Position numbers and translations under genes: made by a program | Part shown: in pieces, positions 21,449 through 25,309 of the stretch | Position numbering within the stretch: position 1 is the stretch's first letter | Layout: each line of letters begins with the position of its first letter | The notes under the pieces: model-generated | Database searches by the model: none | What the model saw: the letters and a program-made list of their open reading frames with translations, nothing else | What the model was told of the DNA's origin: nothing | Source of the DNA: an uncultured Bdellovibrionales bacterium | GTDB lineage: Bacteria > Patescibacteriota > Minisyncoccia > Moranbacterales > UBA1568 | Reading direction: 5' to 3' | Assembly: GCA_964444815.1 (NCBI GenBank) | Contig: CAYUIR010000001.1 | Location: 78,031 to 142,030 of the forward strand | DNA length: 64,000 bases

Positions 21449-21473
21449 TGCTGGGGAGGAAGGGAAATCGAAC
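21449..21473 (-). repeat. duplicated 3' end (T-loop + acceptor) of tRNA-Gln
   Basis: Minus sense GTTCGATTTCCCTTCCTCCCCAGCA, against GTTCGATCCCTTCCTCCCCAGCA in the intact gene. It abuts the S51 gene ATG. Confidence 0.8.
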
Positions 21474-21512
21474 TGCTCTCCGCCGGCTGGCGGATGCGCT
21501 CTATAGGGCTTC

Positions 21513-21532
21513 CCTGCCTACCGGCAGGCAGG
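21513..21532. repeat. 20-bp GC-rich palindromic element
   Basis: CCTGCCTACCGGCAGGCAGG. Confidence 0.85.
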
Positions 21533-21591
21533 CGCCCTCTAGTCCGGCAGTGCCGGTCACCTCAAACGGGCAAACAGGTATTTTCCCGACC

Positions 21592-21611
21592 CCTGCCTGC
21601 CGGTAGGCAGG
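21592..21611. repeat. 20-bp GC-rich palindromic element (inverse orientation of the centre)
   Basis: CCTGCCTGCCGGTAGGCAGG, the reverse complement of the 21513 copy. Confidence 0.85.
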
Positions 21612-21644
21612 CCTTTCCTCGTTCGATCTCTTCCATCATAACAC

Positions 21645-21669
21645 AAACAAAAAAGCCCCTGAAGGGACC
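21645..21669 (-). terminator. terminator after tRNA-Gln
   Basis: Minus sense GTCCC-TTCA-GGGGC followed by TTTTTTG. Confidence 0.6.
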
Positions 21670-21684
21670 TTTTGTTTGCGTATG

Positions 21685-21756
21685 CTGGGGAGGAAGGGAT
21701 CGAACCTTCGCATGGTGGGACCAGAACCCACTGCCTTACCGCTTGGCTACTCCCCA
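21685..21756 (-). tRNA. tRNA-Gln (anticodon CUG)
   Basis: Hand-folded cloverleaf: acceptor TGGGGAG/CTCCCCA, D-arm GCC/GGC, anticodon arm GTGGG-TTCTGGT-CCCAC, T-arm GAAGG-TTCGATC-CCTTC. U1-A72 as in bacterial tRNA-Gln. CCA not encoded. Confidence 0.9.
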
Positions 21757-21760
21757 GTAT

Positions 21761-22012
21761 CTATAAACTACCCAGTATTTCTTTGAGCTCCCTTCGTCCA
21801 CTCCTTGTTTTTAGGTAGAGCTCTCTCTTACGTGCTTTGTCCAGACTATCAAATCTTTCAGAGTAAATCAATCGTAGAGGCCTTCGATTCATCGTGGCCT
21901 TACACTTACCAGTATTGTGTTCTTCCAACCTTCTTTTTAGGTTATCTGTTGAACCAGTATAGGTTCGATTGTCATTTAGACTCAGAAGAACGTACACCCA
22001 GTTTTTTTGCAT
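21761..22012 (-). CDS. GIY-YIG domain nuclease (83 aa)
   Basis: WVYVLLS...YTGSTDNLKRRLEEHN...RPLRLIYSE...ARKRELYLK. ATG 22012 lies 2 nt after the tRNA-like segment ends. The stop is 4 nt from the tRNA 5' end. Confidence 0.8.
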   Translation of the reverse strand: MQKNWVYVLLSLNDNRTYTGSTDNLKRRLEEHNTGKCKATMNRRPLRLIYSERFDSLDKARKRELYLKTRSGRRELKEILGSL

Positions 22013-22014
22013 AA

Positions 22015-22110
22015 GACCAGAACCCACTGCCTTATCCGTCCTCGTTACGCTCGGCCGAGACAAGCCGCTTGGTTTACCTCGGCTCGCTATGCGAGACGGG
22101 CTACTCCCCA
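22015..22110 (-). pseudogene. decayed copy of the 5' half of tRNA-Gln with two hairpin insertions
   Basis: Minus sense TGGGGAGTAGC-[27 nt]-CCAAGCGG-[30 nt]-TAAGGCAGTGGGTTCTGGTC. All three blocks are identical to the intact gene up to the anticodon arm. Confidence 0.8.
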
Positions 22111-22167
22111 GTGAAAAAGCCTCCTTATCCTAGCGAAAAAGAGGCTTCTGGTCAAGATTGTCTCATC

Positions 22168-23082
22168 CTAAACCTTGAGGTAACGGCGGATAGCGATGCT
22201 ACTCGAGAGGACACCGAGCGCGATACCGAGAAGGAGGATGCCGCCAAACACTGGGAGAAAGAAACTAATATAGAGCCCCATGAAATTCCCCTGCGGGATA
22301 GCCCCCTCGGTGAGTGGCGAGATGAAGTAGGCAGCCCCAAAGAGAGCGACGGCAGTAGCAAGGGCGGCCGCGATACCATAGAACACTCCCTCGAAAACAA
22401 ATGGCATGCGTACGTAGATGTTCGACGCACCGACGAGGCGCATAATCTCAAACTCCTGACGGTGTGAGTAGATGGTGATACGGATGGTATTGAAGGTAAT
22501 AAGGACCGCGATAAAGATGAAAGCGGCGCCGAGGCCCAAACCAATCTTCTGGGTAGTCTGGTTGATGCGCTCAAGATTGGCAAAAATCTTTTTGTTCTTG
22601 TCGTAGTTGATGCGACTGATATCACTCTGAAAGGTCGAGCGCTCGAGCTGATTGACGATGACCTCATAGTATTCTGGGGCCACAGCCTTGATGACGAGTG
22701 ACGCCAGGAGTGGATTCTCCCCTATTTCTTCGATAGCCTGAGTGACAGCCACGTTATTCTTGTTTTCAGCGAGGAAAGTCTCAAGCGCCGCGTCACGGGA
22801 AACATATTCGACTGAAGAGATTTCCTTTTTGTATTTGGAGAGTTCGTCACGGATCTCAAGCATGCGGTATTCTGGGACGTCAGGGTTGAATGAGACGTTG
22901 ATGCTCACTTTGTCACGCATGTTCTGGAGCATGTAGTGAGTGGTCAGTCCGAGGAGCGACGAGATGCCCACGATGAAGAGTGAGAGTGTCAAGATGCTGA
23001 CCGTGGCAAATGACAACCAACCGTTGCGACGAAAGTTCTGCCACCCTTCACGAAATGTGCGCCACAGTTTGAGAGTCTTCAT
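22168..23082 (-). CDS. ftsX: cell division permease-like protein FtsX
   Basis: FREGWQNFRRNGWLSFATVSILTLSLF, a large extracytoplasmic loop, and 3 C-terminal TM helices. Confidence 0.9.
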   Translation of the reverse strand: MKTLKLWRTFREGWQNFRRNGWLSFATVSILTLSLFIVGISSLLGLTTHYMLQNMRDKVSINVSFNPDVPEYRMLEIRDELSKYKKEISSVEYVSRDAALETFLAENKNNVAVTQAIEEIGENPLLASLVIKAVAPEYYEVIVNQLERSTFQSDISRINYDKNKKIFANLERINQTTQKIGLGLGAAFIFIAVLITFNTIRITIYSHRQEFEIMRLVGASNIYVRMPFVFEGVFYGIAAALATAVALFGAAYFISPLTEGAIPQGNFMGLYISFFLPVFGGILLLGIALGVLSSSIAIRRYLKV

Positions 23083-25056: not shown

Positions 25057-25129
25057 GCCGTCTTAGCTCAGTTGGTAGAGCGTGGCATTCGTAACGCCAA
25101 GGTCCGGAGTTCGATCCTCCGAGACGGCT
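25057..25129 (+). tRNA. tRNA-Thr (anticodon CGU)
   Basis: Acceptor GCCGTCT/AGACGGC, D-arm GCTC-AGTTGGTA-GAGC, anticodon loop TTCGTAA, T-arm CGGAG-TTCGATC-CTCCG. TTGAAC-17-TAGACT promoter about 80 nt upstream. Confidence 0.9.
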
Positions 25130-25146
25130 CTCAGAAAATAACACGC

Positions 25147-25196
25147 AGGTCTCAGGTTCCCTGCCCGCCTTTGGAGGGGATCCTGGAAGGTGGCTC
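25147..25196 (+). pseudogene. tRNA 3'-half-like remnant with a hairpin inserted in the T-loop
   Basis: AGGTCTCAGGTTC-[CCTGCCCGCCTTTGGAGGGG]-ATCCTGGAAGGTGGCTC. T-stem CAGG/CCTG is retained. Confidence 0.5.
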
Positions 25197-25215
25197 AAAA
25201 GTAAATATGACTGGG

Positions 25216-25276
25216 GTAACGCCAAGGTCCCAAGTTCCCTGCCTGCCGGCAGGCAGGAATCCCGGTCATCGGCTCC
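25216..25276 (+). pseudogene. tRNA-Thr 3'-half copy with the 20-bp palindrome inserted in the T-loop
   Basis: GTAACGCCAAGGTCC is identical to tRNA-Thr positions 35-49. It continues CAAGTTC-[CCTGCCTGCCGGCAGGCAGG]-AATCCCGGTCATCGGCTC. Confidence 0.7.
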
Positions 25277-25280
25277 ATAG

Positions 25281-25309
25281 AAAAAACGCCTTCATAAAGG
25301 CGTTTTTTT
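25281..25309. terminator. bidirectional terminator
   Basis: AAAAAACGCCTT-CATA-AAGGCGTTTTTTT. Confidence 0.85.

Follow-up and report, generated by a model that had tools for sequence, protein, structure and literature searches.

A candidate selfish cassette with a minimal GIY-YIG nuclease gene nested in the tRNA-Gln(CUG) gene of a Patescibacteria genome

How does a nuclease gene come to lie inside a tRNA gene, behind an interrupted copy of its first half and in front of a complete copy? The question is raised by the minus strand of a 64,000-nucleotide (nt) stretch of an uncultured bacterium placed in the Patescibacteriota (contig CAYUIR010000001.1; the whole stretch is called the window here), where one promoter-to-terminator unit holds a 5' half copy of tRNA-Gln(CUG), then a small GIY-YIG open reading frame (ORF), then an intact tRNA-Gln. 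Because this three-part unit recurs in many bacteria of the candidate phyla radiation (CPR) and is absent from close relatives, it has the look of a selfish cassette that can be exchanged horizontally, sits within the 5' side of the tRNA-Gln(CUG) gene and is co-transcribed with the displaced tRNA, a reading towards which we lean.

The unit begins with a sigma-70-like promoter (TTGACC-17-TAGGAT; 22127-22155, minus strand, as for all features of the unit) that serves the whole of it and is orthologous to the tRNA-Gln promoter at sites where the cassette is absent. The half copy that follows is 96 nt long (22110-22015) and covers tRNA-Gln(CUG) positions 1-38 in three blocks with two inserts between them: block TGGGGAGTAGC (22100-22110; positions 1-11, the acceptor 5' strand and the start of the D-arm), a 27-nt insert CCGTCTCGCATAGCGAGCCGAGGTAAA at the 5' edge of the D-loop (22073-22099), block CCAAGCGG (22065-22072; positions 12-19, the D-arm through G18G19), a 30-nt insert CTTGTCTCGGCCGAGCGTAACGAGGACGGA between G19 and U20 of the D-loop (22035-22064) and block TAAGGCAGTGGGTTCTGGTC (22015-22034; positions 19/20-38). 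As the first-pass annotation of this DNA had noted, the blocks are identical to the 5' part of the intact gene (39 of 39 matches) and the inserts split the D-arm; the ordered three-block pattern occurred once in the window and in none of 100 shuffles. Its description of both edges of the ORF was also accurate: the homology stops 2 nt (TT) before the ATG at 22012 of an 83-amino-acid (aa) GIY-YIG gene (21761-22012), and the TAG stop is separated by the 4 nt ATAC from the start, at 21756, of a complete and foldable tRNA-Gln(CUG) (21684-21756; ARAGORN; Rfam tRNA, 59.8 bits), presumably the functional gene. Neither ARAGORN nor Rfam called the half copy a tRNA, and ARAGORN found no second tRNA or transfer-messenger RNA in the window region. 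An intrinsic terminator (21650-21673) closes the unit. Promoter and terminator had been overlooked at first pass, as had a second tRNA-Gln fragment at 21475-21449 and a 165-nt structured element. Long ORFs through the leader (134 aa in the related locus L001; 100 aa from a TTG in the window) were rejected as by-products of conserved nucleotides, the frame being closed at other loci, and a whole-transcript fold in which the acceptor strand of the half copy pairs with the real tRNA at its 3' end was set aside as a trivial result of sequence identity that provides no evidence.

The nuclease is a single-domain protein. It matched Pfam GIY-YIG (PF01541) over residues 3-73 of 83 (E=2.1e-16), and its nearest solved relatives by sequence, identified with phmmer, were the UPF0213 structures 1zg2 (BH0048; E=1.6e-7) and 1ywl (EF2693; E=1.8e-7). 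Foldseek searches with an AlphaFold model (predicted local distance difference test, pLDDT, 92.6; predicted fold E-E-H-E-H-H) ranked 1zg2 first and Slx1 chains at 2-11 (template modelling scores of 0.62-0.70, 27-34% identity), with I-TevI matched only at E=0.34; a fold close to Slx1 recalls a structure-specific nuclease. Among 20 homologues, Y7, Y18, G20, R28 and H32 were invariant, and E31 and E64 were nearly so. Motifs, active-site residues and beta-beta-alpha-beta-alpha core all place the protein in the GIY-YIG superfamily and, within it, in the prokaryotic Slx1-like/UPF0213 branch, not among the phage or intron homing enzymes. No DNA-binding domain was found, as the Pfam domain fills nearly the whole protein and the AlphaFold model has no extra domain, and for this reason the protein is not an I-TevI/Seg-type enzyme. 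The first-pass label "homing-type" is thus not supported in that sense, since the protein is a catalytic domain only and lies far nearer to Slx1/UPF0213 than to I-TevI. The ratio of nonsynonymous to synonymous divergence (dN/dS) was 0.07 between the nucleases of the window and of L003, the closest syntenic pair, where dS was ~1.6 and synonymous sites were saturated; over the copies examined dN/dS was 0.07-0.13, with the ORF intact in each. No further GIY-YIG gene was present in the window, and an exact look-up of the window protein in a contig index gave no match. Its closest relative (89% identical) was in L102, whose upstream context differs from that of the window; the L102 terminator (622-670) is homologous to that of L006 (3331-3380), which hints at mosaic flanks.

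An alignment of homologues scanned against one genome per species yielded 18 loci, nearly all in Patescibacteria and mostly in Moranbacteria, to which the window probably belongs as well, and in every one of the 18 a tRNA gene was found within ~200 nt of the nuclease gene. A tRNA-Gln gene (CUG or UUG) started 0-30 nt past the ORF in 14 loci, with tRNA-Asp in this place in L018 and tRNA-Val in L020, and a 5' half copy of the locus's own tRNA stood directly before the ATG in 15 of the 16 genome loci with a downstream tRNA. The half copies are interrupted by one or more GC-rich hairpins, nearly always between G19 and U20 of the D-loop, and their 3' limit varies across loci from about position 24 to 46. 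Overall, some 23 distinct loci, most of them in Patescibacteria, share the plan of own-tRNA 5' half, D-loop hairpin, ATG-GIY-YIG and intact tRNA, including metagenome examples with quite different tRNA-Gln sequences (L002, L055, L065, L074, L094, L102 and L104). GIY-YIG genes without a tRNA half copy, which the first-pass annotation had held would undermine the homing model, do exist among relatives, although only as a minority (L004, L070 and L100); most loci have the half copy. The L070 (1399-1635) and L100 (2203-2442) members are found amid housekeeping genes (PrfB/FtsE/FtsX region), with neither tRNA fragment nor hairpin.

Two recurring details concern expression. The stub TAAGGC/TAGGA (TAAGG in block 3 of the window) was kept in all related loci, 8-17 nt ahead of the ATG in most, and because it is always kept near the ATG this suggests that it may now act as a ribosome-binding site. 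In about 10 loci (L002, L005, L006, L008, L012, L013, L015, L055, L014 and L020) the ORF runs into the tRNA and its stop codon lies inside the tRNA, often at U8-A9-G10 (for example, ...NIGE and stop). Ribonuclease P (RNase P) cleavage would therefore strip the stop codon from the mRNA, and the position of the ORF between promoter and tRNA, with the stop often inside the tRNA, suggests that expression of the nuclease and processing of the tRNA are coupled.

Other loci depart from the basic plan. L020 (790-1519), from a metagenome-assembled genome (MAG) labelled Gammaproteobacteria, contains two exact tandem units of tRNA-Val 5' half, hairpin and GIY-YIG gene, followed by an intact tRNA-Val, and L004, L005, L011, L016 and L104 carry arrays of extra 5'-truncated, hairpin-riddled tRNA-Gln copies. 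The order in L104 (1395-2125; also in L105) is FtsX, pterin-4a, a tRNA-Gln(UUG) half with hairpins, GIY-YIG and intact tRNA, with two more 5'-truncated tRNA-Gln copies downstream that have hairpins in the D-, anticodon and T-loops. In L016 (2780-2850 and 3370-3590; sequence partly N-masked) a 31-nt hairpin unit forms tandem arrays at the D-loop position of both the upstream half copy and the downstream dead copy. L002 has a gene for a 23S-rRNA-intervening-sequence protein (PF05635; 3374-3763) between FtsX and the cassette, which is another small ORF typical of selfish insertions. More distant family members occur in a mirror form, tRNA-ORF-tRNA 3' piece (L071 and L017), and such forms follow Gly, Ser and Gln tRNA genes. 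In Firestonebacteria and Phycisphaerae MAGs (L019, 2697-3230; L103, 1331-1790) the family member is downstream of tRNA-Ser(GGA) and is flanked by a ~27-nt direct repeat of the tRNA trailer plus a CCGCCA 3' piece.

The upstream neighbour of the window unit is the FtsX gene (minus strand, end at 22168). Relying on the conserved FtsE-FtsX-tRNA-Gln synteny, we searched metagenome contigs with an FtsX alignment and obtained 44 FtsX loci with a linked tRNA-Gln, of which 35 had no GIY-YIG gene, 4 had an upstream cassette, 3 had a downstream family member and 2 had a member elsewhere in the locus. Nearest to the window among the metagenome loci was L021 (FtsX 76% identical), which has the same promoter, a leader of 85 nt and one uninterrupted tRNA-Gln of the same sequence as in the window, with no half copy, hairpin or GIY-YIG gene. 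The motif CTTGACCAGAAGCCTCTTTTTCGCTAGGATA is common to the window promoter, the region upstream of the uninterrupted tRNA-Gln in L021 and the region upstream of the L001 half copy; by this comparison, the half copy occupies the original tRNA start. Occupied relatives, with FtsX 79, 74 and 72% identical, bracket the empty L021. The cassette gene is hence present or absent at an otherwise conserved site among relatives, as is characteristic of homing, and the search for empty sites favours insertion into a tRNA gene with a working copy kept, as had been proposed at first pass.

Several comparisons speak for exchange between loci, and two observations, saturated dS and the lack of near-identical copies in different genomes, speak against it. 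Between non-syntenic loci, blastn homology extended only from position 1 of the half copy to the 3' end of the tRNA. In the identity matrix, the nucleases of CUG loci were intermixed with those of UUG loci (L009 vs L016, 76%), and hairpin type tracked the nuclease clade, not the tRNA. L094 and L065 are syntenic over 2.4 kb, yet their nucleases are 43% identical, compared with 76% for the nucleases of L094 and L074. L094 also has the double hairpin of L074. The tRNA type of L074 is likewise found in its half copy and in a 3' piece downstream, but its intact tRNA belongs to the L065 type; we read L094 as a cassette replacement, a clade swap at one locus. A T54-to-C change (T-loop GTCCGAA), considered as a possible source of nuclease resistance, was rejected, as it occurred in 4 of 19 cassette-linked tRNA-Gln genes (L002, L011, L013 and L065) and 2 of 37 empty-locus tRNAs, a difference that, though suggestive, was not significant.

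The hairpin inserts had been described as part of a "decayed" half copy, a description that conservation contradicts. Between the window and L003, identity was 96% in the leader, 78% in the ORF and 59.5% at ORF third positions, so half copy and inserts form a conserved module. Insert 1 was identical (27/27) in L102 and differed only in the loop in L001. Among eight loci the type-A hairpins were 80-100% identical, with third positions there at 36-57%, and they were identical (34/34) in L008, L012 and L013. The outer stem CCCGYCTCG...CGAGGYGGR, bounded by G on the left and T on the right, was almost invariant across tRNA-Gln, -Val and -Asp contexts, with variable loops. Because the inserts are conserved where synonymous sites are saturated, they are a selected cis element rather than decay. 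Pairing between the two inserts, also claimed at first pass, was present in the RNAfold minimum (a long hairpin in which CCGUCUCG pairs with CGAGGACGG and CCAAGCGG forms the tip), but the window leader fold was no more stable than that of shuffled sequence (z = 0.14), so that the pairing alone is weak evidence. CGYCTCG...CGAGG hairpins were confined to this locus in the window and, in related loci, to tRNA copies beside GIY-YIG genes; a dispersed palindromic mini-element (like a miniature inverted-repeat transposable element, a repetitive extragenic palindrome or a GC cluster) was rejected, as no scattered copies were found in the window or the related loci.

According to the selfish-cassette reading, the payload would consist of the conserved hairpin, a short tRNA stub and the minimal Slx1/UPF0213-type GIY-YIG gene, with a direct copy of the tRNA 5' part on each side: a dead half after the promoter and the working tRNA after the ORF. 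The old tRNA promoter would transcribe the whole unit, and an RNase P cut at the real tRNA 5' end would free the tRNA and leave a nuclease mRNA with the tRNA half as its 5' untranslated region. With tRNA sequence at both of its borders, the unit could move into a naive tRNA-Gln gene through recombination or gene conversion. If a break arose in or near the D-loop and an occupied allele served as the repair template, the hairpin, the stub, the ORF and a further copy of segment 1-19 would be introduced, an outcome that matches the geometry seen here, including where the hairpin lies. Tandem units and dead tRNA copies would result from unequal exchange between the repeats, and the tandem units of L020 and the truncated copies of L004, L005, L011, L016 and L104 are by-products expected of recombination or serial replacement. 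Judging from its family and the precedent of SegB, the nuclease probably either makes this break or acts upon the structure formed by the hairpin. The hairpin may serve the nuclease gene as an operator or as an element of its mRNA, may be a structure that the nuclease recognises, or may interrupt the repeat in such a way that it escapes processing, cleavage or loss by recombination.

SegB of phages T4 and T6 is a GIY-YIG enzyme encoded among tRNA genes that recognises a conserved T-psi-C stem-loop motif of tRNA genes, homes and is absent from related genomes; it is preferentially co-inherited with the tRNA genes that flank it, and it causes segments containing tRNA genes to be amplified in tandem (PMC2330249; PMC13096335). 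The cassette resembles such Seg-type systems in having a GIY-YIG gene lodged among tRNA genes. However, SegB is a phage protein of ~220 aa with a DNA-binding part, and the cassette protein is an 83-aa catalytic domain encoded on the chromosomes of CPR bacteria; moreover, the available text of the SegB papers makes no mention of a hairpin-interrupted tRNA 5' half, which is a fixed part of the cassette here (PMC2330249; PMC13096335). UPF0213/YhbQ proteins (1ZG2, BH0048; 1YWL, EF2693) and eukaryotic Slx1 are alike in size and single-domain build and provide the best sequence and structure matches, although eukaryotic Slx1 depends on Slx4 and on a RING domain; in the literature searched, no UPF0213/Slx1-type protein was found in a tRNA-nested arrangement. 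Nor was the cassette arrangement described there, the closest work being that on SegB, a survey of tRNA introns in Patescibacteria and a 2006 GIY-YIG phylogenomics paper, and the cassette looks previously undescribed. A free-standing nuclease cassette at a tRNA target is the known part; the minimal size, the 5'-half duplication and the conserved hairpin module are unusual.

If this reading is correct, it would provide a concrete biological context for the widespread UPF0213/YhbQ family of small GIY-YIG proteins, in the form of a minimal free-standing nuclease cassette that colonises essential tRNA genes of reduced CPR genomes without killing them. It would also explain the half copies and hairpin-riddled dead copies at tRNA loci, which confuse tRNA annotation and genome binning, and the conserved hairpin next to a domain-poor Slx1-like nuclease would be a testable candidate for structure-guided targeting.

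A number of points weigh against the selfish-cassette reading. Nuclease activity and target are predictions from sequence, and an 83-aa protein without a DNA-binding domain makes sequence-specific homing hard to picture. The occupied allele keeps an intact tRNA, which would still be a target if recognition lies within the tRNA. Synonymous divergence is saturated even for the closest syntenic pair, and no near-identical cassettes were found in different genomes (the best cross-context pair is 80% identical at the nt level), which together indicate long residence, so that much of the pattern could be vertical descent and loss. The strong purifying selection is compatible with a host function as well, some family members are solitary without a tRNA (L070 and L100), and a simple homing model leaves the sequence conservation of the hairpin stems unexplained.

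One alternative is that the nuclease serves the host from within a tRNA operon, which would have arisen by an old tandem duplication of tRNA-Gln and insertion of a UPF0213/Slx1-like gene, followed by vertical inheritance and frequent loss, with gene conversion by the neighbouring tRNA keeping the half copy identical. The duties of such a gene could be repair of breaks or branched DNA, tRNA or RNA metabolism, or defence. A dN/dS of ~0.1 with saturated dS is in line with this explanation, as are the FtsE-FtsX-cassette synteny, conserved down to 40% FtsX identity, and the Slx1-like fold. Prokaryotic Slx1-like GIY-YIG domains are widespread, and one is fused to a TrmH-type tRNA Gm18 methylase, for which the authors proposed an RNA role (PMC1564403). 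Yet a host gene would have to be reconciled with the finding that a family member is nearby in just 9 of the 44 FtsX-linked tRNA-Gln loci, with occupied and empty relatives interleaved, and with the occurrence of the module on Gln(CUG), Gln(UUG), Asp and Val genes and of its mirror form after Gly, Ser and Gln genes. The clade swap in L094 does not fit it either, tandem units and piled dead tRNA copies are typical of selfish DNA, and gene conversion cannot account for the conservation of hairpins that have no partner copy. We consider host service unlikely.

A second alternative starts from the hairpins. The interrupted half could be an RNA partner of the nuclease, with the stem-loop as a protein handle flanked by tRNA-identical segments, and could work as a target-mimicking translational or transcriptional operator or as a base-pairing guide to tRNA genes. 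Precedents for the operator mode are I-TevI, which represses its own gene through an operator resembling its homing site, and Escherichia coli threonyl-tRNA synthetase (ThrRS), which binds a tRNA-like operator in its own mRNA. Such a partner would be in keeping with the stems, which are nearly invariant in Gln, Val and Asp contexts while the loops vary: 93% of the cells in the hairpin alignment are paired, 4 of 9 pairs never vary and 2 vary on one side only, from G-C to G-U. It would also suit a leader that is better conserved than the third positions of the ORF, a hairpin type that changes along with the nuclease clade and lies 11-22 nt before the ATG in most loci, and a protein that has no targeting domain. 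Against it, no compensatory double substitutions that would support an RNA fold were found in the stems of the loci compared. The asymmetry of G-U pairs gave a mixed result, type-A sense folds being slightly more stable and a terminal C-A favouring the other strand. The window leader, as noted, folds no better than shuffled sequence. The downstream dead copy of L005 carries the same hairpin inverted, other clades (L074, L094 and L055) have unrelated hairpin sequences at the same site, the right-hand tRNA segment is reduced to 6-8 nt in L016 and L009, and family members without an upstream tRNA half have no hairpin. Taken together, an RNA partner appears quite unlikely. Much the same low expectation attaches to a broader combination, in which the Slx1-like nuclease would act with the hairpin, whose RNA form or extruded or single-stranded DNA form would be its handle or substrate, and with the tRNA-identical flanks for target recognition. 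If true, this pairing of hairpin and nuclease would amount to structure- or RNA-directed invasion of tRNA genes without a DNA-binding domain, and the host might depend on the cassette-linked tRNA, displaced copies being inactivated.

Downstream of the terminator, the window contains further tRNA-derived sequence. A tRNA-Gln 3' fragment starts ~175 nt past the terminator (21449-21475; GTTCGAttTCCCTTCCTCCCCAGCA; T-loop, T-stem 3' strand, acceptor 3' strand and GCA), with a 2-nt insertion in its T-loop and its last 17 nt exact (17/17, 0 expected by chance). It adjoins a 165-nt structured element, here named X (21476-21640, minus strand), which comprises an antisense T-arm GGAAGAGATCGAAC at the left end, a conserved core and two 20-nt palindromes, with the sense T-stem and acceptor strand of the 3' piece at the right. 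The core is homologous in L006 (3375-3505), and analogous elements with another core are present in L010 (3395-3520) and L013; L032 (3260-3520, minus strand) has two such analogous elements in tandem, with a duplicated terminator and no GIY-YIG gene. At permissive thresholds, Rfam models matched only the intact tRNAs in the window region and five related loci, and neither X nor the leader matched an intron, a ribozyme or a known small RNA. The X element and the 3' piece are probably a separate insertion into the T-loop region and not part of the nuclease cassette.

Such debris raises a third alternative, in which other elements that target tRNA genes (integrase-type islands or palindromic mini-elements) left the tRNA fragments as scars and the GIY-YIG gene is a bystander in a scrambled hotspot. 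The recurrence of a downstream 3' piece and X element without GIY-YIG in L032, where the terminator is duplicated in the fashion of attL/attR, agrees with this, as does the tRNA-Thr of the window, which is likewise trailed by 3' fragments with a palindrome. Nevertheless, in ~560 kb of related loci the hairpin-bearing 5' half occurred nowhere but immediately ahead of a GIY-YIG ORF, ORF and tRNA adjoin extremely closely, with the stop often inside the tRNA, and no integrase is present in or beside the unit, which makes the bystander view very unlikely. Integrase-mediated elements do target tRNA genes and regenerate them, leaving attL and attR with a duplicated part of the tRNA, and the cassette is similar in that insertion into a tRNA gene leaves one intact copy and a partial duplicate. 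However, integrative elements duplicate the tRNA 3' part and carry a tyrosine or serine recombinase, whereas the cassette duplicates the 5' part, has the nuclease as its sole gene and places the tRNA downstream of the payload. On these grounds (a nuclease as the only ORF and a duplicated 5' part) an integrase-type tRNA island was rejected, the 3' piece at 21449-21475 fitting only a separate X element.

Hardly any credence can be given to an interrupted, split or permuted functional tRNA, with the half joined to a 3' part by splicing and the ORF carried along in the intron. In its favour, the tRNA genes of Patescibacteria often contain group I introns (PMC13011429), and the window has both a 5' half and a 3' piece. 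However, no Intron_gpI match was obtained at E up to 10 in the window region or E up to 1 in five related loci, no group II core was found, the would-be intron contains a complete tRNA, the outer pieces lack positions 39-51, carry extra inserts and do not sum to a tRNA, the 3' piece is absent from most related loci, and the bases of the hairpins are flush with the junctions, leaving no bulge-helix-bulge of the kind that marks archaeal-type split or multi-intron tRNAs. The first-pass annotation, which had argued against a tRNA intron from the completeness of the downstream tRNA and had named a spliced or permuted tRNA as a possible refutation of homing, was right on the former point, and the latter is contradicted. 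The group I introns share with the cassette the phylum and a mobile insertion that targets a tRNA gene; they differ in that no ribozyme was found in the cassette and its tRNA is not rebuilt by splicing, and the survey of these introns does not mention GIY (PMC13011429).

Short GC-rich hairpin inserts, which in some cases lie in both orientations or as tandem copies (L016, L005 and the window palindrome), also recall the GC clusters of yeast mitochondria (PMC4478555); unlike these, the CCCGYCTCG...CGAGGYGGR hairpins were seen only within tRNA copies by a nuclease gene and have stems conserved across species. The window palindrome is a 20-nt GC-rich sequence, CCTGCCTRCCGGYAGGCAGG, found three times in 64 kb (21513-21532, 21592-21611 and 25238-25257; 0.01 expected), in both orientations and always within tRNA-derived debris beside tRNA genes. 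The third of these places lies behind tRNA-Thr(CGU) (25057-25130, plus strand), where the downstream sequence (25131-25290) contains two diverged tRNA 3' fragments, each with a T-loop insert, the second of which carries the palindrome CCTGCCTGCCGGCAGGCAGG.

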